64,000 bases of DNA from Amoebophrya sp. A120. Lineage: Eukaryota > Protista > Dinoflagellata. Below, in pieces: positions 6,368 to 64,000 of this stretch (the stretch's first letter is position 1; every line of letters begins with the position of its first letter). Position numbers and translations under genes: made by a program. Under the pieces are notes generated by a model, which was not told the DNA's origin, made no database searches, and saw nothing but the letters and a program-made list of their open reading frames with translations. The stretch lies in contig CAJINV010000002.1 of assembly GCA_905178155.1 (NCBI GenBank), forward strand, positions 6,366,476-6,430,475, read 5' to 3'.

Positions 6368-9300
6368 ATGTCCCACCCCGAGTCTCCAGAGTTCGATCCT
6401 TTTGAGGATCGCAGGGAGAAGATATTACAAGCGGAGGATCTTCCGAGGACCGCAAGTCGGGATGTTGGAACAACAGCTAGTTCTTTCGGACCGGCAGGGA
6501 TAAGTGCCAGCGGGGACGACCACGGCCGCGACAAGGAAGCAGCTTTCAACAGCTTCTACTATCACGGCCAGCTGCGACGTGGAGGCGCGCCGGCGGACTT
6601 GTTTTCTACTTTCGGCTCAACACCAACATCTGGCTCGGCGTCGACACACGTACCCTCTTCTAGTTCTGCCGCGTCGTCCTCTTCCTGTTCTGCCGCGTCT
6701 TCGTCGACCGAAGACCACAACAGCAGCTTCGACAGAACAAGTTCTTACCACGTCGACTCCAGCAATCCAAACTACACGCTTCAGAAAAGTAATGTGCTAT
6801 CTTCATCTTCGACTTCGTCGCAGCATTATCCGAATTCCCGGGCGGCGTTTCGCGTTGTCGACGTGCAGCCGGTAGTGGAAGTGGAGCAGAAGTATCAATC
6901 GCCGATCAAAAAACTCATCGTCACACCCTCGAAAGAACAATCTTCTTCGGCGGGAAGTAGCAGCAGCTTCCACGATTTTTTCCGAAATAATTCTTCAGCG
7001 GCCGTTCCCTTCGATTTCGAAACTGTGCTGGGAGGACCAAGCGAAAGCCGCGAACGAACTGCACTTAGTCCAGCACAGTCACAGTTTCAACCTGGTGCCT
7101 CGTCCCCGGCTCTAACGATCTTCGGAACGTTGCCTAGTTCTAGTACGAGTTCTCACGTGTGTGAAGGTCGTGGACCAGACAGAACAAAAGCCGAGACCAG
7201 TTCCAGAGATCTTCAAACTCAGCAGATCAACACAAGCACGAACCCCCGCCAGGAAAGTTTCTCTACTAGTCCATCCGCAGACCACCCGTCTGCTGTTGTA
7301 AACCAGCTACGGCAGAGCGGCGCGCAGACATTTGGCAGTAGTTTTACCGGTGACGATTTGGACTTTCTGGCTTCAAGTGACGTTGCTCTACCCCCTCCAG
7401 CCGACAACACAAATAGCAGCGGCAGTTCGGTCGGGCGGGACTTTTCATTTGAAAGTAGGAGAAGACCGGTAGTAGAACAAAGTGAAACGCAAGCTACAGT
7501 AAAAAGAAGTCCGAAACTTCAAGGCCACGACGACGACGCGGATCCGCCGGTGTACAATATCTCCCGAGAGATCGTGTTTTACACGCTTCGGTCGATCCAG
7601 GATAAACTTAAGAGTAAGAGCAGCGACAGCAATATCAAATGTAAAAATGTCTGGGTCTGGAAGATTGCCAGGTTTGTCATGCACATTTTGCATGACTCCT
7701 GATATCTGTGATGCATGCCCTCGCATCACAGATTTTGTGAGGGCTTCCTGGTGCCTATACCGCATGACAAACGCTCTTTCCGTGTAGCACAACTTGGACT
7801 CTCTTTGCTGCGCATGCAATACAGATTTTTTTAGAATCCAAAATCAGCATGACAAGTTGCACTCTTCCAGACCCAGACACTTTTGCATTTGATAAGCAAG
7901 TCGACCCTACCCAACGAACCGCGGGAGCGGCCGGTGCCCTTCTCGCCAAAGTACGTGCCCAATAGCAAGGAGACTTCGCCCAACTTCTTTCGCTCGCGGA
8001 ACTACATCACCAACGGCGGCGTTTTTGGCTCCGTCGGTGCGGACGAGCGCACCTCACCGAACCAGCGCACGCAGTTTCTCTCCTCCAGCAGCAGCCCGAA
8101 GACGAGAAACAAGGACGTGGAACTGCAAGAGGTGACGTCGTCCCCCGAAGGAGCAGACCGGTCCTCGAAAAACACAAAGGCCTGGTCCCAAAAAAAAATG
8201 TCCCGTGGCGGCGGAGGTGGAAGTAACCTGGGCAGCAGCTACAGTGCGGTAGCAACGACCGTCACTGGAGGCGGAAGTTGTGGTCAACTGCAACACGGTG
8301 GGGGGACGACCGCAACGACACCGCAGACAGGCGACCTTGCGCTGCAGCCCGGGCAACAGCATTCGGGGATGATGTTGAATCCGCGGAAGAGCCTCCACTA
8401 CTACTGCTGGAAGTGCTGCACCGGGGTGGTGGCGTGCTTCGATTTCGTATTGAGAGGAAAAATCCCCCCTCTCCATATCGAAAAGGTATGTTTCCGAAAA
8501 TTTGTCTTGCTGATTTGAGACCACAGACCACGTCTCTCTTGCAAGAAGACAACTCCACAGGCTCTGCCGCATTATGCAGGCGGTTTGTGATGCTGTTGGG
8601 CCTACAGCGTGGACATTTCCCACGCTAAGCGCCTAGGTCAAAACCTCTCCACTCAGGCTTGGCAGGAGCCTGCTGGCCTCTACTGCAAGACAAACCCGAT
8701 TTGTATACGCAAATCCATAATCAGAAACTTCCTTTTTATATGGGGAGGGGGGACTTTTCTTTGTGATATTTCGTCCTCCGGCTGCTCGGGCCCATTCTGG
8801 TGCTCCTTGCGTTTGTGCTCTACGGGTTTGTCACCTACGTCTACATGCGGTTCTGCGTGCCCGTAATGGACTTCAGTTTCAATGGCGCCGCCGGGGGTTT
8901 GGGGTCATCTTCCGCATCGAACGGCAATGTTGACGTTGGCCCACATGAGGAACTGCACTCAGAAGCAAATCGCTCGACCGCAGCCGCGCAAAGCCCTACA
9001 CTGCACTACCCAAGTAGAACTTGCTCCCCTGCCCCTGCGGCCGCCCCAGAAGAACAGATACTGTTTGTACGTAGAAGTACAGATGAAGACACAAGTTCTG
9101 TTTAGTTCCGTCGACAGTGACGTGCTTTTGCAGAGGCGTCGCGGATGAAAACCCGGATTTTTTGCATATGCCATGGGAACAAAGCGCCGGAACAAGGCGG
9201 CATGGATTCTTGTAAAGGAGAACAAATGCATTTATTCATGCATCTACGCAGGACAAGCTCAGACCCGTACTGCGTAAAGATAAATTCTAGAAATTGTTAT

Positions 9301-11887
9301 TCGGGGTGGTCGCAAGGGTTATTTTCAACCGGATACGCCTTATTTGGACGTTTTTTGCGGGTTTTTCCTACTGTGGAATATCTGCTACAACCACTGGACT
9401 GCCATGCGAACAAGCCCGGGCTACCCGCCGAAGTACAGTTGTTGGACAAAGAATGTGTTTTGATACGTTGACAACGTTGCGAATCTCCCGTTCGCGAAAA
9501 CGCGTAGTTTTGTGACATCAAGTTTGCTTTGGTCGTTTATCGGATGTTTTTTTGTTTTCCTACTTTTGTAATTTGTGCTCATTCAATGTCCATGCGTGCC
9601 AAAAAATGGAAATTCCAGGTACGATGTAAACAACGACGAGCTTTTTGAGATGCTTGGCAACAGCGCGCACATAGACGTGCCCCAGGACCTGGAGTCCGGG
9701 CAGGTATGAAAGTGCACAACTCCCCGCTCCGCCGCCTCACGTCAAGGGCATGAAGAGCAATAAGACAGCCACCAGCGAGCCAGCCCGTGCATGACAACAA
9801 GCGCATGCGCCTCCAGCACTGTTCGAGCTTCCGGAGGTTGTCATGCAAACAGTGCCAGAAGGCAGCAACTGGATTCGCGATTTGCATGACGAAGCAGGAT
9901 GCGGGAGGGGAATGAGTTGCGCCCTCGGATAGCAGCCGAAGGTGTGCCACAAGTGTGACAGGATAAAACCCGCCCGGGCTCACCACTGTTCGGTCTGTCG
10001 GCAGTGTGTGTTGAAAATATCAAAAGCAAAAATCCCCCCTCCCCATATCAAAACGAAGTTTCTGATGCTGGACTTGCGTTCACAAATCAGATTTGTGTTG
10101 CTGGAGAGGACTGCAGGCCGCTACCGAGCCTGGGGAGAGATGTGTTTGCCTAGACGCTTAGCATGAAAAACGTCCGCGCTGAAGGCCCAACAGGATGACA
10201 AACCGCCCGCATAATGCGCCGGAGCCTGTGGAGTTGCCCTGTTGCAACACAGATGCGATTTGTGGTCACAAATCAGCAACACAAATTTTCGAAAACGCAC
10301 CTTGTCAATATGGGGAGGGGGGATGTTTCATTTTGATAGAAAATGGACCATCACTGTCCCTGGATCAACAACTGTGTTGGTACGCTTTGGATCATTTTTC
10401 TCCTATTTTTTTTGCGAGTTGTAGTCTTTCTCCATCTGCACCAATCTGAAACAAGTATGTAGTGGGCAAAATCCGTTTTTTCGTAGTGATTTCAGCAGCT
10501 CGAAATCATGACGTCGAAGCTGTCTCTTGTTGTTCAAACATTTGTTGAACATGATGCGCAGGAGGGGGTACTGCTGCGAAAAGAACTTAGCTCCGAAAGA
10601 ACGGAATCCATTTCATCATCATGATCGTCCACCAGGTTTTGGGAATTATCAGTACTTTGTGCTGTTTCTCTTTTGGCTCTACGTCGGCGTGGTGTTTGTT
10701 CTGATCACCTGCTACGCTCAGTTTCTGGAGATTTTCTACCACCCCTCGCGGTCACGGCACCGCGATTTCAACCACCGCGAGTACGTGGGCTTCATGTACT
10801 ATCCAAGAAAAAAAGTGTGTAAGTGTAACTTTTGTCGAGGAACAGCATCACAGATTTGTTTTGCATGACAGAGAAAACCTGCCATGCGTAGCTAGTACGC
10901 GAAAACACGTTGGAAAATTGACAGGCGTAACTGCATTGCAATATCTGCAAGACAAAGTTACACTTACACAGTTTTTTCCTTGCATATGTACATTCTCTGC
11001 GCCTCCATCTGCCTCGCCCTGTCGTTGCTCGGAGGCTTTCACCTGTACCTCCTCCTGACCAACCAAACCACGATTGAGTTCCAGCTGAACTGGATCGAAA
11101 AGCACGAGGCCAAGAAGCGCAATATGCACTGCAAATATCATGTCGCGGTCTGGAAACTTGGGATGCTGGGGGTAGACGGACGAGGGCAACGCCGCTACTA
11201 GTAGCCCAGCATAGCAAGTTCGTGAGCTGGGAGGTTTTAGCTGTGGTCTTTTTTGCATGACTTACTGCCGGTCTGCACGAGGGTAGCGTGCATCTCAGCA
11301 AGCTTGGGAGTGAGTCATGCTCGCCGGGCGTGACAAGTTCTGCTCCTGCATGCTTCCAGACCGTGACATCTTTGCAATGAATACGCGACGAGCCGTGGCG
11401 AAACGTGTACGACCTCGGACCCGCGCTGAACTACAAGCAAGTGCTATCGTAGCTGTGAGTGGGGGATTAGGTGTCGTCCCGTTTTCGATTATTTGAACGC
11501 CACGAAATAAATCCAAATTGGTTCGCAATTATATTGCAAACGCTCCTCCTGTTTCTCGGTCATGCACAACGTCATAGCATGCGGATTTCGTACCTATAGG
11601 TCGTCTCTGCTCTTCCGCGGACAAAATGGACGAGCTGGAGGGCGGGGCCGGAAGAATCTCCAATGTGACAGCGCGAATCGAGGGCTTTATCGCATGACAA
11701 GCTTCCTACAAGGCTGCTTCTTATTTTCATAATCTAGGGATGGGACGACAACTCTCTAGAAGTTTTCTCAGGTCGATAAGCAATGGGCGAATCTTTGCTA
11801 CTCGGCTGCTTCCCCTGGCTGGGCCGACCGAAGAGACGAGTTGAAGAAGGGTTGAGTTTCCCGAAAACCACCCGGTTCCACGTCTGA
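6368..11887 (+). CDS. DHHC-type protein S-acyltransferase (palmitoyltransferase) with long Ser-rich N-terminus, multi-exon
   Basis: Spliced product contains [37 protein letters not shown], TM segments, TNQTTIEF and NVYDLG. At least 7 introners plus canonical intron 10380-10635. Exon boundaries at 9.0-9.7 kb are not fully resolved. Confidence 0.9.
7633..7894. mobile_element. Introner, family A
   Basis: TIR tatcaaatgtaaaaatgtctgggtctggaaga / tcttccagacccagacacttttgcatttgata; perfect DR agcaa; join SSDS|KSTLP. Confidence 0.92.
8448..8768. mobile_element. Introner, family B
   Basis: TIR tattgagaggaaaaatcccccctctccatat / atatggggagggggga...gata; DR tttcg; join CFDFVLRLLG. Confidence 0.9.
9705..9931. 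mobile_element. Introner, family C-like (forms a GT-AG intron)
   Basis: tatgaaagtgcacaactcccc...gagttgcgccctcggata; DR gcagg/gcagc; join ESGQPKVCHKC. Confidence 0.85.
10018..10338. mobile_element. Introner, family B (opposite orientation to 8448), inside the DHHC domain
   Basis: DR gaaaa; join [10 protein letters not shown]; interior corresponds to the reverse complement of the 8448 copy. Confidence 0.93.
10800..10986. mobile_element. Introner, family D
   Basis: TIR tatccaagaaaaaaagtgtgtaagtgtaacttt / aaagttacacttacacagttttttccttgcata; DR tgtac; join GFMYILC. Confidence 0.9.
11123..11383. mobile_element. Introner, family A-like
   Basis: tatgcactgcaaata..gtctggaa / ttccagaccgtgacatctttgcaatgaata; DR cgcaa/cgcga; join KKR(N)EPWRNVYDLG. 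Confidence 0.8.
11445..11778. mobile_element. Degenerate introner
   Basis: tatcg...cgata ends; DR agtgc/agcaa; removal gives NYKQVMGES in frame to the stop at 11887. Confidence 0.6.
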
Positions 11888-15281: not shown

Positions 15282-18200
15282 ATGCCGCGTGAATCAAGCG
15301 CGCATCGCGCTACGTCTAAGCGGATCAACGCACTGTATGCGGTTCGCTGGCTGTACTCCCGCACGGGGCTAAAAATCTTCTTCCTCGTTCACCTGGCTGT
15401 CCGCCTGTTTGCGCGAAAAACGGAGGAGAAACGCACGAGCACGGAACAACACCAAATTACGACGAACCAGTTGGAGATGAAGACCGAACAAACTACAGAG
15501 GAAATGCGCCGCACCGGGGCTTCAAGACAGGAAAGCAAGACTGGAGCGGGGCTGCGGAAGCGGAAAAGAAGATTGGTCGTGCGAAAGCGAAAAAGAAAAA
15601 AAGCAGCCGATGACGATGCCGATGATGCTCTTGACTTTATGCAGCATTTGGCGCATTTGCATGATATGTCGCTGCACCCTCACGACGAATATCTCGACCC
15701 CGACCTCGGGAATCGTGATGACGACGACTTCGAACATGGTTCTTTTTGGACGAAGAGTCTAGCGGAGATTGATGACGAAACGCCACCCACGTGGAAAAGC
15801 AAATACGGGCGACCGTCTGATTGGGCTTTTACTGACGGGGTCAGCCAGCGCGACATCATCGCTTTCGCGGAAATCAAAATGGAAGATGAAGAAGGCAACG
15901 TAGTGAATGATGGTGATTGGCCAATTACTATCAACTGCAAATATGTCTAGGTCTGCAAGAGTGCAAGACTTGTAATGCTGAACTCACATCATCATCCCAA
16001 GGCCAAACTCTGTAATGCGTGTTGCGGAAGGGCGGTGTTTGTTCTGTGTCATGCAAAAACGTCGCCTGGTCGCATGCGTCTTCCGCACCACAAGACCGTT
16101 CAAAAATGTGTCATGCTCGGTTGTGTACTCTAGTCATTTCTTCATTCTTGTAGTAGCATGACAAGTTTGAGTTTCCAGTTCCAGACATATTTGCATGTGA
16201 TAATTACGAAAGAGGAATGGGAGGCCGTAGGCGGAAGAGACGAGCAGTGGGCCTGGCTCTGCTGGACAAACCCCCATGCGCCGGGGGAAGACGCTGATTG
16301 TGACGAAATAAAAGAATATTCATGGCAAATATTTTGTCTGGGTCGGGAAATAAGTTGTGAGGCTTGTCTGTGAATAAATAAGTGTTGTGCTGCCGCGCAT
16401 GACTGGTTTTTGCGCGGTGGCTATGTGTTGCCTTTTTCGCATGAGAAACTGCGTGTAGTTTGCATTACATACAAATAGAGTGGAGTTGTCGGCGGGGGAG
16501 CATGCATTACAGCAGTGCAGAGTCATGCCGCGCAAGCATGACACGTCTCGCCTTCTTCCGGACCCAGGCATAAGTATTTGCATTTGATAAAGAAGAGGAT
16601 TGGAACCTGCACCCAAATCCGGGTGCAGACACAGACGGTCCGCATACAGATATTCTGCGTAAAAACGCTCCCACACAATATTTGTCATGCGAGTCTGCAT
16701 GCCCCGAATGTCTCTCATGCGCAGTATGTAATTTGTATGTAAGGCGTTGGGTTACCAGAGCCGATCCACATAACAACAGCAGTCCGCCGAGGAGCATTTT
16801 CTGAGGGTTTTTTTAAAGTAGTCACTCTCGAATCAGGATCATGTTGCAACGCGGCTTTTATAGCCAAGCATGACTACACTGACTACATTGTCCGAAAAAT
16901 TCGGCAGCCTACGGAGTTCACAAAGCTTCTTGATTTGTCCAGCAGATTAATGCGCCAGCATGACTATGGGATGCTGGGGACGTTTTCACACAGGATACGG
17001 AAGCCGTGTGGGTGGCAATGGTCTGCAGCAAATTCCGCCACGTCAATCGCAGCCTTGTCATCGCCAAAATGGGCAGCTGAAGATGCTCAAAGCTCTGACA
17101 TAGCCGTTGACGAAAAGTACACGGCCCTGGGTTTGAGCGATAACGAGAACCGGTTTCTGCAATTACTCGACGGAAAACAGAAGGGGACTCGGTTACCGAG
17201 TCGGATGTTTCCAGCCTTTGCGGCGGTGAACATGTGCCCTGGCCGCACCTGCCCCGCCGCGCTTTCGATGTGGATCTGGCGAGCTTTCAATTGTGCGCCC
17301 AACACTACGGCATTCACCTCGACGACGGCGACGATCGATTGTTCAAAATTTTGACCAGGCACACGGACGTGGGCGAAGTCGTATCCATCAACGGGGAAAA
17401 AAAGGTCTCGGGCAGCACGGTTAGCACCGACGTGATGAGCAATGCGCAAGAGCAGGACTGGTCGCTCCAGGCTATGACGCAGTGGGCGCAACATAACCTT
17501 GACGAAGGCAGCAATAACGGCGAGGGCGATCCTGTTGACACGCCTGTTGTACGTCAGTTGTCCATAACTGACAATAACGTAGAGGCCACGGGAGTGACCT
17601 CTACCAACCCGCAGGGACACATCGAGGAGGTCTCCTACGATCTGGATGGCGACGACGGCTCAAGCACCCCCGACGAGCAGGCTCTCGAAAAACTGATGAC
17701 GACGGCTGGCGGGCAGCACTTGACGCTGACCGAGCTGCTCGCCATGTGTGAGGGCCAGCTGGACTCTGGTGCGCTGACCGCAGGCGGTTTCAAAGACTGT
17801 GCTGCGGATCCCGATAACGGCGGGGGTACGCAGCTGACGGATGATCGGCTTTGGCACGTGATCGCGGGCCAGTTTGATACCGACGGAGACGGTAGAGTCA
17901 CATCAGCGGACGGAAGAGCGGAGGGCAGCACTACGACGGTTTCCATCGCTGACATCAAAAACTCCGCACTGCAGTACGACGACCTCCATGACGAGTCGAT
18001 CTCTCATAGCGGCTCGAAGCACGTCGACGCGGACAAACTGAGAGACATCGCTGACCGGCTGGCGGCGCGCAACGGGGACGGGAGTGCCAGTGGCAGCAGC
18101 GGCGGCGAGGGAGGTGGAGCGGAAAGTGGTGAAGGCCAGGCGGTGGGGTCGACGATCACGAAAAACCAGTGGGTGCACACGCTGGGCCGCAAGGGTTCCG

Positions 18201-36942: not shown

Positions 36943-37770
36943 GCAGCAGTCTGTTTCGGGGGAAATAAATGCAATTTTTTGTTTTGGAAGTCGAAAAAAA
37001 AGTACGATTTGAAACAGAAAATATCAAGGTTTAGATGTGTTTTATGATTCCGAGAATTTTTTACTTTATGCCTTTTCTGTTCCTTACACTTACATACACT
37101 ATGTACGCGCTGCGCTGGCCTTTTCAACTGTCGCAGAATACGCACAAAAGTTTTTGAGTTTTGGTTCGCATATACGGTTCATATTGAGAAGCACTTTATT
37201 TCACTTTTAATAGGGACGCTGTACTTGTATTTCACATTCATAGTAAATCTGGTTGCATTTATTCCTATTTGCAGCCAATGTGTTTTTTCAGGTTGGAAAT
37301 GTTGCACACTCGATTTTTTTTCAGTCGCAAAAATTTTTGTATTCCTTTTGAACAATTTAGGGTTAAGCTTTAGCAACCCTGTATACCTTGAGCAGAGAGA
37401 GAGCGCCAACATGAACGTGATTCTACATGATTCGTGTATGATGCAACGATCAAAACAATTCTGTAACATACTGTCTGGTTGAAATTGTTTCTCATTGCCG
37501 TGCCTACACCTACCTTATGACCCATTCCGCAGAAGCTTGTCGGCGGTCGTTTTTTGTTCAGATGTTGTTTTCCAGGCCGTTCGGTTGGTTCAAATCGTTT
37601 TCATTTTTTGAAATGTAAAAAACCCTTAGGTGCCCTCTCCCTGGATTCGTACGAGTCACCAGCGCAGGGCCACAAACGGCCCTGCGCTTGTCCTGTAATC
37701 TTTATTCTTTTTTCATTCGATCTTATAATCGCGAGAACTTTTTACCGCGAAATAGGAAAACAAGGCGAAG

Positions 37771-47666: not shown

Positions 47667-48923
47667 GATGGAGAAGGCTTGTGCCACTGACGACCCGGAC
47701 TTTATGTTCTTTTGACGACGCGAAGGCGAAGCAAGAGGCACTTTTTGCTAGACGCTAAAGGTGCTTAGTAGTATCGTCTCGAATTTATTGTTCCATTGCT
47801 TCGAGTTAAAAGTAATCGTAAGCAAACCGCACGAGTAGAAGGGCGCACTTGATATCCACCATTGCATTGCAAAATTTGCGACGCAGAGCTTTCATTTGTA
47901 TGATTTTCTGACTTTCTTTTCCCCCTGAAAAATCGAACGATGTTATCTTCAAGTTGAGACCCAAAGTAGTCTGACAAGTACAGTTTTCCTTTCCAACTCT
48001 CTAAATTGACGACCTAAAAAATGTTCTAGTAACGCCAAGTATATTTTTTGAAAAGGAGCAGTACCCGCGCTCGCAAATATATTGATAAGTTTGTTGTCCT
48101 CTACGAAGTCCTCCGCACTTTTCCCACTTGAAGACGGACGTGAGGTGATGTTGGCGCAACTTTCTTAGGCGTTCTTACCCTGCGCCGAAGTTGCGCTGAC
48201 CCCAGCTTTGATGAGCGAAGTGATTTCATGTGTACAATTGCGCGCGGTCAGTTATTTAAAAGAAGCGAAGAGCATGAACTTACTACTTATTTCCCGCAGC
48301 TGCAGCACGGACGGATCTAGTCATGTTCAGGTTTGCCTCGTTCATTGCATATGCTCGTCACTGGTCGGAATTTTGATTTTCGTGCTGTAGGTTGTTGACA
48401 CTGGATACATACGAGAAATGGTTCTGGCCGATATGGTTACTTCTGGATACCTGCATTTGATGAAGCTATTTTGATAGGTGCTGTGCCCTTCAGGCAACAG
48501 GATAGTCGTTTTTGTGGATCATCTGGTACTGTGAGTCGCAATCGCAAACATAGTTTGTTGTACTCGTGAAGGAAGTCGTCTGATCTGTGTCGTGAGGTCG
48601 TGATATTTTGGAAACTCATTTCGTTTTTCAATCGGTTAAAACAAAAACTAAAGCCGGGGGTCGTGGGAAGTCGCTCGTTCTTTGGTACGAGCCTCTAAAT
48701 CGTCGAATCTAAGTCGAAGAATCTTTCGTACTATCGAGCTTCGCTGTTGAAAATTCGGAAAAACGCACGCGCTTTGGAGAAAATCTCATATTTGTTCGGT
48801 CCTGCAGCTGCAGCATTCGAGTGACAGACGGCGTGCCGTTACTTTTAGCACGAAAGTTCTTGTTCTAGAAACACCAAGAGAAACGCGGTTTTTTTGGAAA
48901 AAAAAAAATTAGTAACATCTTCT

Positions 48924-51900: not shown

Positions 51901-54825
51901 CCCGAACCACCCACTTTCGATCCTCAACGAACGCGAATTCCTGAAACTGCTGGAGCAGGTGGTGTCTGGTGGCGGGGGGAATGCGAATGATAATTCTAGC
52001 GGTTCTTTCGCACCAGCATCAGCAGGAGCTGCTGCCAGCAGTACAACGACCATCTCTATCGAGGAAGAGGAGCTTTTGTTGGGAAGATTTAAAACCATCG
52101 CCGCCAGCGAAGCTTCGCTGGCCCCCGTCCACAACCCGGGGGTGACTCTGGAGGAGTTCGCGGACATAATGTTGTGGTTTGTCGCGTACAAAGCGGAAGT
52201 AGCCGAGAAGAAGGCGCTGTTCTTGAAGAAACGGGGTGGGTCCTCTCTGACGCGGGACGACCTTCTAGCGTCGGGGGTTCATTTTCCCAGCGCGTCGTTC
52301 CCAAGTACTGCCGACGGGGGGAAAAGCAGTGTTGACAGGAAGATGGTCGATCGGGCACTGTTGGTTGGCTCATCTGGCGATGTTGAGACGAATGCGGCGA
52401 TCGACGGCTTTGTGGCCTTTCCAGGGACATTACCCGCGGGGGCAACCCCACCCCGCGCGGAGGGCGAAGCTGCGCTGCCGGTTATTTCGGAGGGGGAAGC
52501 TGCGCCGGCCATTGCGGAAGGCGAAGATATTACCGGAGGCAGGATGAATCGCTTCCCGGTGATTCCCATCAATGAGGGGATGTCACTCCACAGCTCCGTG
52601 CATTCCGCCATGCCTTCGGAATACCCCTCGCACGCCATGGGGGCCGGCGGGAAGGAGTCCGACGACGAGGTTCCGGAGGATCTGCGTCACCTCCCCTACG
52701 CGCTGCAGCAGCGGGCGCTGAAGCAGCGCGCCGCTTGGATGATCTTGGTGGGCGTGGTGTCGATCACGATCTTTGCGGAGGGGTATCCAAGAAGAAAACA
52801 TTGTAGGTGTAACTTTTTTGGGGGAACAGCATTACAAATTTGTCTGGCATGACAGCAAAAACCTGTCATGCGCAGATAGTACGTGAAAACGCCCTTTAAT
52901 GGGCCCTGCGATGCATGCCAAGCATGACAAGGTGCAATCATCTTGCATGTTGAGCATCACAAATTTACACTAACAACGTTTTTTTCATCTTGGATAAGGG
53001 GGCGACGGAGATGATTGTGTACACGGGCGACTTGTTGCGCGTTCCCACCTTCGCCGTCGCCTTCTTTCTCGGCTATCAAGGAACAAAAGTGTGTAAGTGT
53101 AACTTTCTTGGAGGAACAGCATGACAAATTTGCTCTGCATGACAGAGCTAACCTCTCATGCGTAGCTAGCACGTGAAAACCAAAACACTTACGAGAAGAA
53201 CCCCTAATGCGTGTCCAGCATGACAAGTGTAGGCGTCTTGCATCCTGTGCAACACAAAACTTTCACTTTCACTTTACACTATCGCAGTTTTTTTCTTGCA
53301 TATCGGCCCGCTGGCGACCAATGCGGGGGAGTTTTTCGCCGCCGTGCAGATTGGGAAGCTGAAAACCGAGGTGTCCACCAGCGTTTCGGTTTGTTCCTTG
53401 CTGGGCGCGGCGGTGTTCAACAACACTTTGGTTCTCGCGGTCTTGTACTTCCTGTGCTGGCGCCAGGGGCTCATGTTTTGCTTCCTCTCCCAAACCTGCT
53501 GCCTGCTCGTGTGCACCTGGGGGGTGAGCCTCCTGTTACTGGTCTTCTCCGTTAACGGCGCCGTGCGGGAAGACGGAGATAACATTGCTGAAGCGCCCAC
53601 GACCTCCAAAGTAGATGCTGACAGAAGTGCAAGCAGTACTACGGCAAACACGACCGGGACGACGAGACGCTCCCCGCGGGCGCAGCTGCCAGCGTCGGAA
53701 AACAAAAGTCCGGCGGCTTCTCCCGACACGCCTGCGCGGGACCTCCAGTTATCCGCCAGGGCGTTCTACGATCCGGCGTCGATGAAGGAGGGCCACAGTG
53801 CGAAGTTGGAAGCGGCGGAGAAGGAAAAGAAAGACTTGTGGTGGCAAGAGCACGTGATCATCAAGACCCCTGCCGCGTACACGATTTTCTGCATCTTTTT
53901 GCTCTCGTTCTGCACCTACCTCGTCTGCCACAGGTACGTTTTCCCCTGGGAGGCGGTGTGGTCCAAGGGCTACAACTTTTTTCCCAACAGCAAAAAACTG
54001 AAAGAAATGCTGAAAAAAGAAGAAAAAGGCATGAAAAGATTCCAAGAAGATGAGAGCGGCCGGAACGACGCACGTCGACGCCAGAGGTCGGGAGCGGCAG
54101 CGAACGCGGACTTAATGGGTGCTCACGATCCTGCAGGAGCGTTTCTGGAAGGACAAGAAAACCTCCTTCGTCCACTTCCAGCAGAACAAGATACGACGAA
54201 CATCTTTTCGTTCTTTGAACAGGCGCAGACGATGCTGAAGAGCGTTTTCAGTTCGAATGGTGAGTTAGATCTACAATTACCGGACGAGTGGCAGGACAAG
54301 AAACCTTTGGACGCCGTCGAGGTCAGCACGGGAACTGATTCAAAATTTCCTGCTCACGGAGATCAATTAGAAGCAACCCGAGTACTTTCTGCCTCGCCAA
54401 GCTTTGCAAGTAGCTCCAGTCGTGGAATCATGGGAGGCCACGAAGGTACTAGAACAAGCATGACCTACTTCGACCAGATGCAGCACAATTTGATTGCTGA
54501 GCCGCTGCTGTACTTGTTCCTCGCTTTGGTCGCGTTGACAGTGATGGCACTGCCGGTGGCGATTTACTACTGGAAGTCAGGACCAAAAGTGGAGGTTTGT
54601 GTCACCGCAAAGAACTTCAGGATAGACGAGAGTTCTAACGACACCGGATCAGTAACAAACACGACTAGCGGTAGTTCTAGTTCAATGTCCACTACTAGTC
54701 CAAGATCCGCACCATCACGAGACATGACGGCTGGGCTGGAAACTAAGAAGGAGACAAAATCCAGTGGGGACGCGAATTATGCCGGGAAGAAGTTGGCAAG
54801 TAGTGTTGGGAGCTTGGCAACTTGA
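48924..54825 (+). CDS. Na+/Ca2+ exchanger-like (NCL/EFCAX-type CaCA superfamily) membrane protein, multi-exon
   Basis: Alpha-1 region SDGAELL...GSIVLPLLGAFPDALFVLFSG and alpha-2 region PLATNAGEF...GAAVFNNTL; EF-hand-like remnants (VTLEEFADIM). Junction at 50.53-50.71 kb unresolved. Confidence 0.85.
49486..49747. mobile_element. Family A element inside canonical GT-AG intron 49470-49799
   Basis: Perfect DR ggtct; flanking exons join VK|ELKPD via GT-AG. Confidence 0.88.
51096..51375. mobile_element. Introner, family E
   Basis: DR cacca; join SFTNESH. Confidence 0.92.
51435..51756. mobile_element. Introner, family B
   Basis: DR gtcaa; join RRSSMIDN. Confidence 0.92.
52784..52996. mobile_element. 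Introner, family D
   Basis: DR agggg; join FAEGATEM. Confidence 0.88.
53074..53302. mobile_element. Introner, family D
   Basis: DR tcggc; join FFLGPLATN. Confidence 0.9.
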
Positions 54826-55187
54826 TAAAGATAGTAGTACTAATACGAAATAAAACAAAAATTGATCTAGAAAGTAGCCGATTTTATCATATTTCACACT
54901 ATTGTTCTATGCTATTCATGGATATTGCAAAAGATGACCTACTATGTTCTTGAGAGAAGGGATTTTCTTGAATGCCGTGTGCGTTGCTTGGCTGTCCTTT
55001 CAGAGCTTTAGTTTTGTTTATCGAGTGTAGAAGAATTCTCTTCAGAGACAGGTTGTGAAAACTGCCGGAATTCTGTGCCCGATTCTCGTAATTCATTCAT
55101 TACCACGGAAAAACTAAAACAGTCACTGAATTATTTTGTACCGATAAAACAAAAACTGTACATACAAATGAACAATAAGAGCTCGCG

Positions 55188-56467
55188 TTAGGGAGGAAAA
55201 CCGGGCGGAACGTGGTGAATCTTTAAAATTTTTCGCGCCTTCTCATCCGCCCCGGGCCCATCCTCATTCTGGCCCCCCTCCTTTCCGAGCTGGCTACTTG
55301 CCCCTCAGATATTACAGGGCGGGCATAGTACTCTTTGCGCCGCCTCCCTTCGTCCCCCTCCCCTTCAGCAGGCGGGGCGCCCATCCTAGGAACGGCCGAG
55401 TGCAACTCCGCGGCCCGGCTTTTTTGTCCCTATGGAGGCGGCATGCACCGCGAACGCAGCGCCGGGGCGCAAGTTATGCCGCAGCCCCCAAAGCAGCACG
55501 CCACAAAATGCCTGGAATGGCCGCCCGGCCTTCCGCGCCAGTAACCGTGGGGTGGCGGGCGCGCGCAAATTCATGGGCGGCCCCCGGGGCAAGGAGCCCC
55601 AAGGGCTCGGCAGCCGTTGGCCGTGTGCCAAGGGGGCAGGCCGCCGCGCAGAAAATACCATCGTGGGCGGCCCCCATAGATGCTTGCATTGCGCGGGGCC
55701 TCCGGAGGGCCCGATGGCGGCCGGGCCGCGGAGGACTCCCGAAGGGCCCCGATCGGGGTCATTTCTGGGGCCCAATATTTTTCCCAGATTTTTCCCAGAT
55801 TTGAACCCGATGCGGCCAGATTTACAGCGGTACGACGTCAAAGATTTTCGCCAGATTTTGCCCAGATTCGCCCCCCGGATGGGGTCGAATCTGGGGCCCG
55901 ATCTGGGCGAAATCTGGACGCCGGACATTTTCGCAAGATTTGGCCCCGACGCGGCCAGATTTACAGCGGTGCGACGTCAAAGATTTGCGCCAGATTTGCC
56001 CCGGGCCCGGGGCCAACACACTCCGGCGAACCCATGTCGGGTTCGCAGGCTGGCCCGCGCTGCGCCCCCCGGGCCAATCTGTGAGTATTCGGCTTCGGCG
56101 ACGACTTGGCCGCCCCAACTCAAGGAAGCTCGCGCGAGCGGACACGCGAAATGGTTTGTCGCTCTCTCCCGCCGAGCCCGCCCCAGACCGCTCGGCCCTT
56201 TCCTCCGCTTCCAAATGAAGTAGTTGCCTGTGGGGCCCGGCGACGAGGAGGCCAGACCGGTGCCCCCCATTCATTCGCCACCGCCCCCCTGCGCCCCCTA
56301 TTACGGATCACGCGCGCCGTCAGAAAGCAAGGGCGCAGGGCGCACACGGTGTGATGCTGTGAAGCCCCGCATACTGTAAGAGCTTGCGCGGCCTGTTCGG
56401 CCGGCCGAATGAGAATTCCAGAAAAATTTTAAAGATTCACCACGTTCCGCCCGGTTTTCCTCCCTAA
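55188..56467. mobile_element. Intergenic non-autonomous TIR element, 1280 bp, 47-bp perfect TIRs, 5-bp TSD
   Basis: ttagggaggaaaaccgggcggaacgtggtgaatctttaaaatttttc (55188-55234) and its exact reverse complement (56421-56467); tcgcg on both sides; GC-rich interior. Confidence 0.88.
55806..55997 (+). repeat. Internal 53-bp direct repeat pair and multiple CCAGATT motifs
   Basis: 55806-55858 vs 55945-55997 nearly identical. Confidence 0.8.
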
Positions 56468-57171
56468 TCGCGCTCCCTACCGCTAATTGGTAACGGCAGG
56501 ACTGATGGCTCGCAAATTTTTTACAGGTCTGTAGCGGACTGTGCCTTCGTGTCTGGTGTCTATCGCTTTTCAAGCTCCAATGAATTTCTGGGTGGACGAA
56601 CATATTAGAAACGAAGGGACGAGCACGAGAGTGATTCAGTACAGAGAATGTACTATGAAGAGCGAGAGGACGCGAGCGATCAGTGAGAGAGACCAGTTCT
56701 TGAGCGCACGAACAAAAGTGACAATGAAAAGATGCTTTTGACGAGTGACAAGCAAACGAGAATAGCGAGAAAATATTTTGTTGTTGCGCAGACTTAGTGC
56801 GTTTTTTCGTCTTGAGGCAGCTGAGTTTGTCGTAGCTTATTTTCTCGTGTGAAGACAAATGACTTTCAGTTTCAAACCGAGACTCAAACTTCTGCAGCAT
56901 CGAGGAAAAATTATGGAAGCTTCGCGTCCTCGAATCAGACTCAGCCTGTGTATTCATTTTCCCATCCCCATACACCTGGAGCACGGCAACCCTCGTGCAG
57001 TTTGAATTCACTTACCCCGTTGCATTTGCATGCACATAACAACTCAATCACCGCTTTAGAAGAGAAAGAGAAGGAGGAAAACACCTGCACGTACGAAAAG
57101 TTGCATTTGAGCTTCGGGACAAGGACGGCCATGTTCACTCGCCGAAGCATCGAAGCAAGAGCAGCGAGATA

Positions 57172-60100
57172 ATGACGCAACCGCCCGGAGGAGGGGAGGA
57201 CGGCGGCGGGGGCGGGTCGAGCTTCTCGGGAGGACCGCTCACAGGAGCGTCCGCCGCCTCGTCGTCCTCGAGAGTTACGATAAACAGGACGGATCACGAT
57301 AGAGACGACTACGGCTTGAGAATTATGACGACTGGTTGCAGCAGCAGCAGCAGTCCTGGTAGAAGTGCTACTTCCTCCTCCGGCGCTTCTCATCGCAGAA
57401 GACGCGACCTTGTTTTCGGGCGGAAGAACAAAAGACCACCGACCCCGACAACATCTCGTCCAAATGCCTCTGCACTGTCGCCTTCATCCGGAACAACAGT
57501 TTTGCAACAAAATTTAGCGACCATTCATCCCAGGTGGAGAAAAACCTCACAACAGAAAACTAGTACAATAATGTCCTCGTCTGCCAAGGTGAAGCGGAAA
57601 CGGCGGCGCTTACTGGCAGTAAATCCATTATTTCGCCGACCCACTACAGCCGGCGCGTTTTTTCTTCTCGGCGCTGCTACGTCTGGTGGAGTGTATGGTT
57701 TAGATGAGAAGATGGCGAGATGGCTGGAGGATAACATCGCAACGCCGGTCTTGAATGGCGAAAAGAACGGAGACATCATTTCACCAGAGGAATTTGAAAA
57801 GAGACGAAGACTGCAAGATGAAAAAAGCGGCGATAATCTTCCGAGTACGGGCTTACTCGCATCAACTTCATCGTCATCGAAAGCGGCCAGTAGGATGTTT
57901 CGCGCCGGCGATGCAGTAGATGAACAAGATGCGGAGGAAGAAGAGCTCGAGAGGCACCAATTCCTTCCCCTCGGTATGGCTCCGGACACCCCGCCCGACC
58001 GGGTCGCTGACGCCAGGCGCTATTTAGTCATGGAAGCGGAGCGGGAGCGCACCGGTTGGAAATACGCGGAAGAGTGGAGCAAGTACAGTGGGAAGGAAAG
58101 AACGAAGGCATTGTCATCATCATTTTCGAGGACGTCCTCGCGAGCCTTAGCAGCGACCGATGATGAACATCAAATAAACGCCGAGAAGAACAACGTGATG
58201 AAACACGCCTACGGTCACTCCGCCGTGACGAAAAACGTGCAATTTTTCACCGAATCCGACCAGTGGAAGCCAGATTCGCTGCACAACCGCGCGGTGCATG
58301 CGCAGCAGCGGAATTTGCTGCACGCAGACAACCCAAACTTTCCCAAAGCGCTGACACGGGGGGAAAAACCAATGATAATAACGCCAACCACGGACTACGA
58401 GCGACTGGTTCAACACGAACAGGGCAAGAAAAAGCCGTCCAAATTTTTCCTGCACGATCACAGCGAGAAGTCGGTGGGCGCCCGGAAACTGAGGAAATTG
58501 GCGGAGCAGAGGCATCGGGAACATTTATCTTCCGTCGACAACTACTTGACGAAAGAGGATCCGAAACTGGTCAGCTTGTGGGAAAAGAAAAAGAGCAACT
58601 ACAATCCATTCACGGCGGAGGAGAGCCATTTGAGGAGAACGTCGGAGTTGGAGGCACAGTCCGTTCGGAAGAACTCCGAGCACCAGGTTGATGATCCTTG
58701 CGCAGGAGCAGCAGAGAGGGAGCAACAAGTAGATTTCGAATCCGACAAGCTCCTCCTGGATAAAAAGCACGCGGATCAGCATGCAAGGAAAAGGTTAAGG
58801 CAATTAAAAGCGTCAACCGCTTTCCTGGAAGGGGGGTACAAGGCGGTGGAAGAAGACCTGCAGTCGCTCCCGCTCGACGAGCAGGCGAATTTCCGGGCGA
58901 ACCTGCAGGAGTTGGAGGACATAGCGGAGGAGTTGGAAGAGAATAACGTGCTGCACGAGATCTCTGACAACGACGGCGAGCACAACTTCGAATCCGTTGG
59001 TCTAAACGGGAAGAACGAGCTGTCCGTCATCGAAAACAGCGAGGAGGAGCAGAAGATGCAGATTGTCCGGGATCTCCGCCGAGCTCTCAAGGACCAAAGA
59101 GCGGGCATGAAAGTAGTGGACGTCGTGGCGAGGTTGCGGAAAAAACACGAAAACCGGAGGAGAAGAAGGCTAGAGGAGATAGAGCAGAACCAAATTTTGA
59201 AAATTAATGCCGGGGACAAAAATAAATCGTCGAATGCTGGGATGAAGTGCAGTGCAGAAGGCAGCAAAGGAGCAAGCAGTTTGTCTGCAGAGAAGGACCA
59301 CATCCGCAACCTAGTGGCCGCGGCCAAGGACGCCGACTTGGCGCAGCAAGATGAATTCCACAAAAGGTCTCTCTCCTCGCACGTCACCGGCACCTTCTTT
59401 GTCGTCCAACCACGAGCGATCGCTGGGTTTTACGACGGGAGAGACGAGTATTGCAAGCAGTGGACGGAATCCCCGCCGGTCGTTTCCCGGCTGAATCCCC
59501 AGTTCCCCCGCGACGGGACGGGCATTATGGAGCAGCAGAACAAGGCGTGCGGCGTCGGCATCATCAACTACTTTTTCACCATATCAAATGCAAAAATGTC
59601 TGGGTCTGGAAACTTGTGATGCTAAAAGTGGATGATAGCCGGACTGCAATAGGCAGCAAAGCATGACAAATTTTTGAGCTGCTATGTGTTGCGTATTCCG
59701 CATGAGAAACTGCCTAGGGCCAAGACGACACCGTGAGGACGACCACAGGGGTCCGTCTCAATGAAATGAAAATGACAGATAGGAGATGCTTTTCGTGCTC
59801 ATGCATCACAGATTCTCGAGTCATGTCAGACATGCATGACAAATGTAAGAATCTTCCAGACCCAGACATTTTTGCATTTGATACACCACGTCGGACGTCG
59901 ATACCTACGCGTCGAACCCCTCGATCCAGCAAGTTGTCTCCATCACGTTAAAGTGGGCCACGTTCGTGATATCCGAGACGTGTGAGAACCTGCTCGACGC
60001 GTCTGGTGGATTGGCCATTGCCTCCTGCCGCTTCCAGGCGAACGAGGCAAAGTTCTTCTTGTCGCAGGGCTTGAAGAAGAACACGGCTTACACCCTCGCC

Positions 60101-63100
60101 GTGCGGCACTACAACCCGGAAACCATCGTGAGGGCGAACGTAGCGAATGCCGCGGGTTTGAACGCGGTGGCTGCGACGTTGGATTCGAGAGGGTTCGTGA
60201 TCAACACGGGGGCGCAGACGGAAGTGCTACGAATCGGTGAGCCGAACGACCCCGGGGCGATCAACGTCAGGCAGTACGAGCGAATCGACGTCAGGAAGGG
60301 GTCGCTAGCAGGTATGCCTAGATTGTCGCTGGTGTTGCCGTTTTTTAATGGATATAATCATATTCTCTAATGTGTTTAGTTCGTGTTTCTCTGTATGTGA
60401 ACTGATTTGGTTGGTTTTGCTAGAAAAAAACAAACCCTCTTCTTCTGCATCTTGCATAAGTAGAAAAAGACGAAAAAGCAGCAGCAACATACATTCATGA
60501 CACGTGTCAGGTGTGAACATCACGAACCCGGACATTGCGACCGCGGTTCGCGGGCTGGTGGTCCCGGCGTCTCTCCACTTCTCGCACCAGTACCTCGCCG
60601 TGGAGAACACGTTTTCGCTCATCGTGAAGTTCCACCAGGGCGACAACATCGAGCAGCCCACGCAGCCACAATATCCTGTGTAAAAACGTCCCCGCCCCAT
60701 AGTCAAGATGGCGAATCGGCTAGACAAATCCACACGTTTTGGCTGTCTTGCATGACGCCGATTATATATACCTGGTCCTAGATAGATCCGGTGCTCGCCG
60801 GGCTTGCGATCTCCCTTTCCACCCACCTGGAGCTACCTGCGACGACGCGGCTATCATGTGCATTACTCTCAATTGGACTGTGGCCTTCCGTGGCATCCTT
60901 GGGTCTGACTTCTCCCTCCTCGTCCGAATATTCACACTCGCCATGGCGTGTATGAATATGCCTGCGGTTCTGTTCCCCCTGCGCCGCTTTGCATGTTCTG
61001 GTGTGGTTTGCTGGCCTCATTGCATGTTCTTGTTTTTGTATGTTGGCCCTATGCTTGTTGCTTTGGCCGTGTGGTGGCCCCTATATCTCGTATGCCGTTG
61101 CTAATGACCGATGCCACCAGTCATAGTCCAATTGAAGCCTTTTACGCGTCTCGGGTTTTTGCCTACGCCATACCCTAAGTCGGGCGAGTCTGCGGCTGGT
61201 CGCTCCGTACCTGTCTTCAAGTCGTCCCGGGGCACGTGCTGAGACTCTCCGCTGCGTCTCACGACTGAGCCGCCCGGTCCGTAGCTGCAGAAGGACCGTT
61301 CGCACCCTCAAACCAGCCTCACCAGCGCACGATTGGAATCTGGCAGTTGCCCTTCAAGCCCTGGCGCTAGGGCGATTCCGACAGCTTGACACCCCCGACC
61401 GCCGGGAGCCAGATTTTGTGCTTGGAGAGTCAACACGCTTTTTCTACGACCACGCAGCGCTAGCACCACAGTACCACTTCCGGGCTCCCGCAGTTGTCCC
61501 TCAGCCTCCCGATGCCTGGTGGCAGAATGCGTCGCTGTGGCTACCCGGCTATGGATGCTGGTGAATTGCCTTCCTGTGTTCTGGTTCGGACTAAACGTTG
61601 CTGCTGAGGAGGGACCGGCCTGAAATTTCGCCTGCCTTGGATTCTTTGCGCGGTTCCTGTCATTGCTACTCACTAATTTGTCACAAACGAATATTCCTCT
61701 TTGCCAAATGCCACCGCCCTAAAAAAAAAAAAAAAAATAGGTGAGAAAATCAATAAAGGATATCTAGTCGAACCAGCGGGAGCGTGTCCCGGAGCTGCAG
61801 GGATGCTAACAATGACCTCGAATACAAATTCTGAGCCTGATTATACCCTCTACGGTCCGGCTTTTCCGTCGCTGTTGGTTCTTCTATGTGCCTTCAGAGG
61901 ACTGGCTGGACCTATACTACCTTACTGCAGCTTCCAGGGCCGTCCTTGTTTTTCTGTTGCGGGAGGTGCCTGGTCCAGCTGGTACAATTCGTGGGTTCAT
62001 GAGGTCGATTTGAGGTAGTTGTTACGTGTGGTTGGTCTTTCGGTTCTGCCTGAGTATTTCCTTTTCAGTCAAATATTTAGTCTTCTGAACTTCGACTTCT
62101 TATCCTTATTTCTCGCCTATTTATTGGATGAAGCTAAACAGCGCCTCTGACTTATTAATGTTTTTGGCGTATGTGACTCATCCATATATCAATGTGAAGG
62201 TCTTGTCGCAGGAGTCTGCATTTTTGTTGCTGTGCTCCTGGTTTTGGCTTTCTATATGTTTAGCGAGTTGGAATTGTTGGCTAAGGTTGGCGTAATTTGG
62301 CAAAGTGGGATATGTTGGTGTGAAGTGTGTTGGAATCGTGGCCGGGAGATGATGGTGATGGCACTTCGGTGTCCGCCTGACCTACCTTCCCTGCGTGACA
62401 GCCATCTGCGGCTGTTTACAAAGGGGGAGGCAAAGTGTGCCGCACTTCTGTTTAGCATGACAAATTTGGATTCGTAGTGTAGTGCTGTTTGAGCTAGCCC
62501 AGCAGCATCACGGATCTAGTTCATCATGCTGATTGGTGGAGGACAAATTGCAAAACGCGACGTGATCATGCTTCTCGTACGTGGGGCTCCGCATGAGAAA
62601 CATTTTCAGCATGCAGATTTGCATTACAGCTATGGGTTGGGGACGTTTTTAAATACGATGCACAACCCTTGCAGTTCATCAAGCACAACGCGAAGCACCC
62701 GGCGGCGGACACCGAAAACGCACAGCAGCAATTGAACATTCAGTGGGAATGGGACGACGTGCTCGTCAACCTCGGGTCCGGGGGGACGCCGGCCGGAAAC
62801 CGCCCCAACCAAAACATCCGCGGGTATGTGAACGGCTTTTCGTGGCGACCGTCCGCGGAGTACGATTCCCGGCAGGGAACCACGGGTATCCTGTTCACGT
62901 TCGGCTTCCGGTTCTACGGGACGCTGCGGGCGCCGCAGGGACGGGCGATCTTTTTATCGCAACCGAGTCACGTGTGGGAGGTCGCGACCTTGTCAACGGA
63001 TGGGGGCGCGACGGAGTGCGTCGGGGTGCAGTACAACCCGGGCGTGGGGCTCAAGTGCAACACGTTCAAGTACCCGGGGTACCAGGGGAATAACTTCGCC

Positions 63101-64000
63101 AACGGGATTTTCTTCTTCTACGACAGCGCCGCCACGGTTGCGATCGACACGAAGATCTCCCTAAGGCTGAACAACCCGAACGTGGCGGTCAACATGTTCT
63201 GGCTGGCGTATTCCTACCAGTACATGAACGGAATTATGCGGGCGCCGTTCACCATGGAATTAGACAAGCCGATCGCGTATCAACTGCAAATATGTCTGGG
63301 TCTGGAAAAGTTGGAATCTGTATTGCGTGTTTTGCACTCCTGTAAAATCTGCATTGCGTGACCGACAAAAGCGGGAATACTTTGTCATGCAAAAACGTAG
63401 TTTCTCATGCGCATTTCACATGAGGAAGCGTCCTGAAAATTTGTCATGCTTGGCTGCGCTCAGGAGTACGCTCAGTCATCGCAACTTAGCATCACAAGTT
63501 TCCAGACCCAGACATATATGCAATGCATATCGCGACGCAGGGGTACGGCAGTGGGGACGTGATCTCCACGACCTCCTTGGCGGTCAACGAAAAGAACAAG
63601 GTGACGCTGCTCTTCCGCCCGGGAAATACGGTGATTCCGATGTCCTCGGTTTTAATTTCAGGCTATCTCGTGATACTGCCGCCGACCGGCTTCCAAGTGG
63701 ATAGGACGGGTACGGGATTTTTTATTGTTTCATTTGCTGGAATTACAATTATGAATTAGAATTGTCGTCTTTGTTGTATGTAGTGAGGTCACCGAACGGT
63801 TCTAACCGGGGAGTTTTTTTGCCATCCAGCCAGCAAAACGCCCGGCAGTTTCCAAGCGGCCGGAGGGCTTTTTGCACAAAAAAAAATTTCAATTATCAAG
63901 CGGCTCTGGCTATGTCGGCACCGAATCGCCAGCGGATTCTATCGATCGCCGCTTGGTAAAACGACGCAGAGAAGCCAGCAAAAGGGGCGCCCTTCTGAGG
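57172..64000 (+). CDS. Large secreted/surface-type protein (RRL motifs, charged region, then beta-rich domains); 3' partial
   Basis: ORFs 57172, 59966, 62669 and 63523 join via introners 59582, 60672 and 63278 and canonical intron 60312-60510; probable further GT intron from about 63710. Confidence 0.72.
59582..59883. mobile_element. Introner, family A-like
   Basis: DR cacca; join YFFTTSDVD. Confidence 0.9.
60672..62660. mobile_element. Family E introner carrying a 1.7-kb nested insertion
   Basis: Family E halves 60672-60756 and 62455-62660; DR cacaa; join QPQPLQFIK. Confidence 0.87.
60757..62454 (-). mobile_element. Nested insertion, probable decayed retroelement fragment
   Basis: Flanked by duplicated gcatgac; minus-strand C2H2-like remnant near 62155-62260; A17 tract at 61721-61737. 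Confidence 0.55.
63278..63529. mobile_element. Introner, family A-like
   Basis: DR tcgcg; join KPIATQGY. Confidence 0.9.

Follow-up and report, generated by a model that had tools for sequence, protein, structure and literature searches.

What does a short word do that recurs inside introns of many otherwise dissimilar families? The question is raised by 64,000 nucleotides of the dinoflagellate Amoebophrya sp. A120 (GenBank assembly GCA_905178155.1, contig CAJINV010000002.1, positions 6,366,476 to 6,430,475; hereafter the window, in whose numbering coordinates are given). Its genes are interrupted by introners, i.e., introns with the terminal inverted repeats (TIRs) and target site duplications (TSDs) of mobile elements. 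An earlier note on this DNA had observed that TTGT(C/G/A)ATGC is shared by introner families with different TIRs, and had proposed a common protein-binding site, either a subterminal transposase site in DNA or, as it contains GCAUG, a splicing determinant in RNA. Spacing, conservation and strand tests favor the DNA branch of this proposal and not the RNA branch. We find that the architectural unit is two same-direction sites 31-33 bp apart, and sequence comparisons suggest that these pairs are probably bound, as double-stranded DNA, by a mobilising protein that the families share, likely a transposase.

The material consists of the window and of 609 kb of one related assembly (records JACKZZ01...), merged from at least 154 loci that had been selected by a TIR pattern of the family 0 type. 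All counts come from these two sources.

The elements that carry the motif

We curated 44 TIR elements in the window; 37 of them were also recovered by a caller that uses element ends only, and seven were added by eye, partly guided by the motif. The same caller found 464 elements in the 609-kb sample and none in 400 kb of shuffled sequence. The resulting 508 elements were classed in 105 families, 19 of which have at least three copies, and in 56 groups whose interiors cannot be aligned. The families are thus not alignable descendants of one recent ancestor, but neither are they as fully unrelated as the earlier note had it: TIR identity between groups is 58% at positions 1-15 and only 28% at positions 16-30.

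Element ends consist of TAT, seven loose bases and then AAA. In 29 elements the end profile is T.97, A.96, T.97, followed by A at.78-.91 at positions 11-15. Among the 363 elements assigned to a strand, TAT is present at 348 of the 5' ends and 342 of the 3' ends, and TGT at 2 of each. An exact 5-bp TSD flanks 197/240 elements with high TIR scores, other lengths accounting for 0-21/240. The families are divergent, yet these ends and the TSD are common to them, which points to ancient common descent or common machinery. [quoted passage not shown] Copies from the related assembly are up to 95% alike to window elements, and the sample and the window have no exons in common. The window has 51% GC. 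Its genes run along the + strand: 28 elements were assigned to + and none to -, and 16 have no call.

Occurrence and form of the motif

On both strands of the window, TTGT(C/G/A)ATGC has 65 matches, compared with a mean of 2.11 and a maximum of 5 in 100 dinucleotide shuffles, an enrichment that agrees with the earlier note. Most of them (59/65) lie within the 44 curated elements, which cover 13,697 bp, and 6/65 in the remaining 50,303 bp. The sites quoted in the note were confirmed, with TTGTCATGC at 7674-7682 (+) and 7847-7855 (-). The strict 9-mer is carried by 29/44 elements, the 8-mer by 35/44 and the broad form T[GC]T[ACG][AT]TGC by 37/44. Motif discovery, which the note had recommended, ranked GCATGACA first among 8-mers counted de novo, with 51 copies across 27 element interiors of the window versus 1 outside. 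In the related assembly, where elements were called by their ends only, the 8-mer has 1,307 matches in 112 kb of element DNA and 441 in 497 kb outside, a fraction that also takes in truncated and uncalled elements.

The word exists and recurs as first described, but its true form is broader. A weight matrix extends it to (T/C)T(G/C)T(C/G/A)(A/T)TGC, by which the 321-bp family is included, and the variants beyond the 9-mer are TGT[CGA]TTGC and TCTCATGC. In the Amoebophrya literature searched, GCATGACA was found in one paper only, inside a primer, and the TIR and architecture patterns had 0 matches in viral contigs. Their 3 matches in prokaryotic genomes, for a rough chance estimate of about 2, were without a partner TIR and were rejected.

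Pairs of sites and their spacing

A profile of positions and spacings, also recommended in the note, revealed a general rule that was absent from it, namely a direct pair of sites 31-33 bp apart. The introner at 7633-7894 provides an example at either end:

7674-7714, + strand: left-end pair, TTGTCATGC at 7674-7682 and CTGTGATGC at 7706-7714, 32 bp apart, inward
7816-7855, - strand: right-end pair, TTGTCATGC at 7847-7855 and CTGTATTGC at 7816-7824, 31 bp apart, inward

Taking one representative for each of the 56 non-alignable groups, we counted 24 such pairs, whereas 2,000 null placements gave a mean of 3.1 and a maximum of 10. With the broad motif T(G/C)T(C/G/A)(A/T)TGC, at least one pair is present in 19/19 consensuses of families with at least three copies and in 284/413 of the individual copies of these families. 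The search pattern for pairs has 10 matches in the window and 0 in shuffles. A distance of 31-33 bp is three helical turns of DNA, and the spacers between paired sites are nearly unrelated (32% identity vs 26% at random). Counted from the end of the element, the first inward site is at 32-35 bp in 12/37 ends and at 43-44 bp in 10/37. Weak and strong half-sites also overlap as a palindrome, TGTNWTGCAWNACA, 11 times vs 1.2 expected, when scored by weight matrix only. The inversion of subterminal sites described in the note holds for several families, but not for the family 5 consensus (279 bp), where all six sites point the same way.

One may ask whether the copies are instead base-pairing partners that lengthen the intron hairpin, in RNA or in single-stranded DNA during transposition, with no protein site involved. 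Hairpins were proposed for these introners (PMC7789003), and in minimum-energy folds of 14 family consensuses 45-94% of the motif bases are paired, often motif-to-motif (up to 75%). Pairing, however, needs no identical word in unrelated families, and motif-to-motif pairing falls to 0-8% in families 5 and 6. In addition, no covariation is seen between the variable bases of left and right sites that face each other (34 matches vs 34.4 when shuffled, in 72 family 0 copies). We consider this explanation extremely unlikely.

Conservation along family trees

In nine families (365 copies), the mismatch to the consensus is 5.9% at motif bases vs 22.6% at other interior bases, a conservation flattered by taking the motif columns from the consensus; base composition does not explain it. 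On the internal branches of the family trees there are 0.0052 changes per cell at the motif and 0.0273 in the interior, a five-fold depletion, and on the terminal branches 0.030 and 0.077, a 2.6-fold depletion. The internal and terminal depletions differ with an odds ratio of 2.06 (p 5e-8). The two TSD copies of an element, identical at insertion, differ by 4.9% (353 elements, 12 others with at most 2 matches having been dropped). Hence, the motif rate on terminal branches (3.0%) is about that expected from decay after insertion. At least one site is found in 413/413 copies of families with at least three copies, and 15/89 rare, older copies have none. Conservation of the motif chiefly along transposing lineages fits selection for mobility, though some later constraint may also act. 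Motif decay plotted against TSD mismatch in young families was flat and gave no signal, and a singleton-rate test of the motif was saturated and uninformative.

The trees also bear on the idea that the motif is a passive relic, left by one ancestral element or by a 32-bp tandem unit and devoid of present function. The ends (TAT-N7-AAA) and 5-bp TSDs found in all families, the 45-bp internal modules that some of them have in common, and the slight excess of spacer identity over random (32% vs 26%) would suit such an origin. However, word and spacing persist although the interiors of the 56 groups are not alignable, and motif columns change about five times less than their neighbors on internal branches, whatever the base composition. 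A passive relic is contradicted by this branch test, and we regard it as highly unlikely.

DNA or RNA: splicing register and strand tests

Our evidence on splicing comes from contigs of two runs that we guessed to be RNA, whose joints cover 33500-53400 only; outside this interval, intron status means restoration of the reading frame. Among the 15 joints listed of 23, 11 remove one element plus exactly 5 nt, and 3 look like cross-mapping between repeats. The contigs also lack a GT-AG intron, and since they lack this as well as the elements, they behave as mRNA and not as empty DNA sites. Removal of an element with 5 nt restores the DHHC domain and other reading frames. The raw RNA runs X10 and X11 (2026) gave 111 and 23 partial reads on element ends, with no junction information. 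The elements of the window that are seen to be removed are as follows, listed without strand:

33679-33957: family 6 introner; joint 33675>33960 seen in RNA-like contigs; diverged TSD restricts the 5' cut to -3..-1
34155-34314: family 1 introner; removed with 5 nt
34385-34600: family 8 introner; removed with 5 nt
38192-38392: old introner, spliced although it lacks GCATG and any intact site; its two TTGTCATGT relics are separated by about 62 bp; cut restricted to -1 or 0
38792-39044: family 2 introner that has eight broad sites; removed together with 5 nt
39104-40406: family-0-like introner in which an insert of about 1 kb is nested; the full 1,308 nt are removed
40680-40932: reverse family 0 introner whose left end is TCT; removed with 5 nt
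42448-42656: family 3 introner; removed; diverged TSD restricts the cut to -1 or 0
42717-43039: family 4 introner; removed with 5 nt
45368-45675: introner whose 57-bp TIR is distinct (TATGGA...); it has six broad sites and is removed with 5 nt
45723-45994: reverse family 0 introner; removed together with 5 nt

Relative to TAT, the three joints whose TSDs have diverged could be cut at -3..-1, at -1..0 and at -1..0. The one position that these three have in common is -1, and it is permitted by all 11 joints. The register is fixed: the intron is N-TAT...ATA-NNNN, cut 1 nt before TAT and 4 nt after ATA. Its first base and its last two bases are unconstrained, the last two taking all 16 combinations, and TSD bases show no drift towards GT or AG (6 vs 7, 9 vs 8, 6 vs 5). 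The T at +2 may be likened to that of a GT donor, and a branch point could be provided by the A that precedes the 3' cut by seven bases.

Does the motif take part in this splicing? It would if it were a GCAUG-like RNA element through which a splicing factor marks non-canonical introns for removal, the second branch of the earlier proposal. The RBFOX splicing element is (U)GCAUG; one orientation of the motif contains GCAUG, and the motif is almost confined to introns. Two orientation counts lean the same way. Of the window elements taken by themselves, 21 have an excess of GCAUGACA-type transcript sites vs 10 with the opposite (p 0.07); families 5 and 6 (279 bp) are inserted 18 times in the GCAUGACA orientation and 5 times in the other. 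U1 small nuclear RNA was reported as undetected in A120 in the searched text of PMC7789003, so novel factors would be expected.

The larger counts do not bear this out. Read in transcript orientation, the 363 strand-assigned elements of the 508 have 481 GCAUGACA-type vs 459 UGUCAUGC-type sites (142 vs 131 elements), and the related assembly alone gives 121 vs 121 elements. GCATG is missing from the sense strand in 77/363 elements, and the strand that is read makes no difference to motif mismatch (6.1% vs 5.9%, p 0.71). At the termini, a test of this kind does pick up selection at the RNA level, and they serve as a positive control: the first T is changed in 2/363 5' ends vs 16/363 3' ends (p 0.0013), the donor-side T being protected and the acceptor-side terminal A drifting. 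The element at 38192-38392 is spliced out without an intact site or GCATG, in one RNA-confirmed case, and nine site-less elements interrupt open reading frames (ORFs). The rule of 31-33 bp, for its part, suits duplex DNA. Unlike RBFOX elements, the motif has no strand preference, was dispensable for splicing in the one RNA-confirmed element that lacks it, and has a duplex-like spacing. A GCAUG splicing determinant is therefore not supported, an RNA element being very unlikely. Splicing instead follows the termini and is probably separate from the job of the motif.

A proposed shared mobilising protein

The reading that we prefer is that of a DNA site for a mobilising protein, and its mechanism can be sketched as follows. 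A sequence-specific domain would read T(G/C)T-N-W-TGC on one face of the helix, where 31-33 bp make three turns. The protein would load 33-35 or 43-44 bp inside an end and hold both ends together, and an active site of the DDE/integrase type would cleave at TAT, the insertion being staggered by 5 bp. Copies retaining pairs would continue to move, and sites would decay after insertion. The best lead for the protein may be the published A120 family 38, which has ORFs resembling a Copia-type integrase region. As every larger family has this word and spacing, the families, diverse as they appear, would depend on one mobilising system.

Several observations weigh against this reading, besides the choice of motif columns mentioned above. 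An intact pair is present in only 16/56 groups, most of the other groups being single old copies. A period of 10.5 bp fits the 56 inward sites best, but these sites are not independent, and the periodicity from first sites alone is broad (best 9 bp, range 9-12). On terminal branches the motif rate of 3.0% is still below the 7.7% of the interior, so that some selection after insertion is possible, and sparse sampling blurs the test. Nor did the protein turn up: the nine ORFs of the two nested inserts in the window have no Pfam match, a crude regular-expression screen of 170 long ORFs of the fetched loci gave no integrase pattern, 32 unpaired ends gave nothing, and the caller detected no long autonomous element in the 64 kb + 609 kb.

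The same data fit a host DNA-binding protein. The pairs would then be sites of a bending or chromatin protein, or of an AP2-type factor (TGCATG presumably resembles apicomplexan AP2 sites), which would help in transposition or in the escape from silencing while another enzyme cuts. Every DNA-level result, i.e., the spacing, conservation, strand and branch tests, fits this view equally, and one word across families with unrelated TIR positions 16-30 (28% identity) would suit a single conserved reader. No transposase was found here, nor in A120 in the searched text of PMC7789003, where general mobilisation by a transposase is argued against. On the other hand, the word is rare outside elements (6 strict matches in 50 kb), so that in the window it is not a common host promoter or chromatin signal, and the position of the sites is tied to element ends, as for transposase sites. 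We judge the host protein unlikely.

The preferred reading, of a transposase-like protein, can be taken further, albeit tentatively and with less expectation of being right than wrong. An unnamed integrase-derived (Copia-like) cut-and-paste superfamily with TAT ends and 5-bp TSDs might drive almost every one of the lineage's introner families, which number roughly two thousand, through one protein that reads the three-turn TGTNWTGC pair and not the outer TIR. The host would remove every copy by a ruler set by the termini (N|TAT as donor, ATA + 4 nt as acceptor, and possibly, as branch point, the A that lies seven bases ahead of the cut), and would require neither GT nor AG.

Relation to known systems

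Subterminal arrays are carried by hAT, CACTA, Tn7 and Mu. Binding of transposase to subterminal repeats was shown for Emigrant/Lemi1 (PMC1636448) and piggyBat (PMC11707139). As in these arrays, the sites described here repeat a short word inside the ends, in direct as well as inverted or palindromic order, with regular spacing (44 bp in piggyBat, PMC11707139) and ends that are often unequal. In Emigrant/Lemi1 and piggyBat (PMC1636448, PMC11707139), however, binding is proven, for the array of one element and its MITEs, whereas here it is inferred from sequence. Unlike in those arrays, a single word with a single spacing extends here over dozens of families whose outer TIRs are unrelated, and the elements are also precisely spliced introns. 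Ginger transposons have TGT ends and TSDs of 4-5 bp, whereas the ends here are TAT..ATA, with TGT at only 2/363 of each end. The combination of TIRs with a short fixed TSD, as from retroviral-type integrases, is nonetheless shared with Ginger and other integrase-derived DNA transposons (PMC12130899).

The elements correspond to the introner elements described in A120 (Farhat et al. 2021, PMC7789003), whose inverted repeats start with TAT, followed by seven variable bases and at least AAA. They share with them the TAT-N7-AAA ends, short direct repeats at exon borders, non-canonical junctions and many families. In the searched text of that paper, there is no internal motif, direct repeats have 3-5 nt and splice positions are variable; here, TSD length (5 bp) and cut register are both fixed, and all larger families carry the same phased word in their interiors. 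The same text states that movement and splicing are open, with neither a transposase nor a family-specific rule (PMC7789003). The sizes match A120 families of Gozashti et al. (2025, PMC12130899), i.e., about 107, 149, 209, 252-262, 279, 305 and 321 bp. Most A120 families are listed there as 'TIR DNA, Unknown'. Family 38 (about 808 bp) is flanked by TIRs, with a 5-bp TSD, TA/TA termini and Copia/Gypsy-like ORFs, and lacks the homology, termini and TSD of Ginger (PMC12130899). Automated TSD calls in that study range from 2 to 6 bp, and its main text neither contains the term 'subterminal' nor, in the parts searched, describes a shared motif. The MITE-derived introns of Fritillaria and euglenids (reviewed in PMC11282704) also have TIRs, TSD-like repeats and non-GT-AG junctions; unlike them, the elements here have no fixed acceptor dinucleotide, all 16 combinations being found.

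Subterminal arrays and A120 introners are thus already published, and what appears new in the literature searched is a word and a spacing common across families. Word, spacing and cut register are undescribed in the searched text of PMC7789003, PMC12130899, PMC9860276, PMC11282704, PMC11453091, PMC12005148 and PMC6482013, although Figures S19-S25 of PMC7789003 and S9 of PMC12130899 may show the motif. If our reading is true, the pair provides a 45-bp DNA bait and a search pattern for the autonomous element and its protein. The -1/+4 cut register and the strand-specific conservation of the termini make the splicing question testable in minigenes. Finally, an element that can be carried by any exon in either orientation and is removed without a scar would be of interest as a gene-tagging tool.

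Other elements and features of the window

The remaining curated elements are, again without strand:

3336-3554: TIR introner, family 8 (about 216 bp), TSD 3/5, JmjC gene, has sites
7633-7894: TIR introner, family 0 (262 bp), TSD AGCAA 5/5, six broad sites, DHHC gene
8448-8768: TIR introner, family 4 (321 bp), TSD 5/5, chiefly TGT(C/G)TTGC variants
9705-9931: older family-8-like introner, TSD 4/5, immediately 5' of the DHHC domain exon
10018-10338: family 4 introner, reverse orientation, TSD 5/5, interrupts the DHHC domain, variant sites only
10800-10986: family-3-like introner, TSD 5/5
11123-11383: single-copy introner, TSD 4/5, no intact broad site
15929-16202: introner, family-0-type TIR, own interior, TSD 5/5, five strict 8-mer sites
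16317-16589: family-2-like introner, TSD 5/5
16651-16997: old family-5/6-like introner, reverse orientation, TSD 1/5
19853-20032: old introner, no site, added by eye
21277-21580: introner, family-0-type TIR, TSD 5/5
21675-21845: old family-1-like element, TSD 4/5, no intact broad site
21994-22272: family 5 introner (279 bp), six same-direction sites, spacings 31, 49, 33, 48, 31
22764-23026: old element, family-0-type TIR, TSD 2/5
25480-25687: old introner, TSD 4/5, seemingly CRAL-TRIO-like gene
25753-25999: old family-8-like introner, reverse, TSD 4/5
26088-26311: family 3 introner, reverse, TSD 5/5
26556-26813: old introner, family-0-type TIR, TSD 2/5
26865-27036: old introner, no intact broad site; reading frame restored on removal
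27080-27278: old introner, no site; reading frame restored on removal
27447-27595: old family-1-like introner, one site
27714-27993: old introner, no intact broad site
28431-28701: old introner, TSD 3/5, two sites
30582-30755: family 15 introner, near-palindromic, TSD 4/5
49486-49747: family 0 introner, TSD 5/5
51096-51375: family 6 introner, TSD 5/5
51435-51756: family 4 introner, TSD 5/5
52784-52996: family 3 introner, TSD 5/5
53074-53302: family 3 introner, TSD 5/5
59582-59883: family-2-like introner, perfect 30-bp TIR, TSD 5/5
60672-62660: family-6-like introner in which an insert of about 1.7 kb is nested, TSD 5/5
63278-63529: family 11 introner, TSD 5/5

The candidate at 1215-1477 and an inner TAT pair at 61692-62312 have no TSD and were left out of the counts. 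The former, together with 929-1127 and 11443-11770, might be very old elements, with TAT-like ends and no TSD; none of the three is counted.

Internal modules of 40-47 bp around a site are common to families with different TIRs (3414-3457 vs 51169-51213, and 22202-22241 vs 34197-34236), and one locus of the related assembly, L059, is a chimera of two families. This suggests module swapping between families.

Some introners contain nested foreign inserts, at 39295-40345 and 60757-62447 in the window and at L029:710-1292, L031:10375-10556 and L060:3964-4304. Three of them end in (CAT)n/(ATG)n or (TTCAA)n tails, two have duplications of 11-14 bp, and they lie at or beside motif sites. They look like non-LTR (non-long-terminal-repeat) insertions using introners as safe sites. 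The insert at 39 kb is found at the same place in L136 (97%), and the composite either moved itself or is shared.

An intergenic, GC-rich element at 55184-56472 has a 70-bp inverted repeat, internal direct repeats and one 8-mer site, lacks TAT ends, and had no match among the fetched loci of the related assembly. In a long acidic protein with weak EF-hand matches, a 655-bp exonic repeat (91%) occupies 17624-18263 and 18965-19610. The gene at 25300-28800, which we take to be CRAL-TRIO-like although the 58-aa piece scanned gave no Pfam match, holds nine mostly old introners in 3.5 kb, and these form a series of decay stages.

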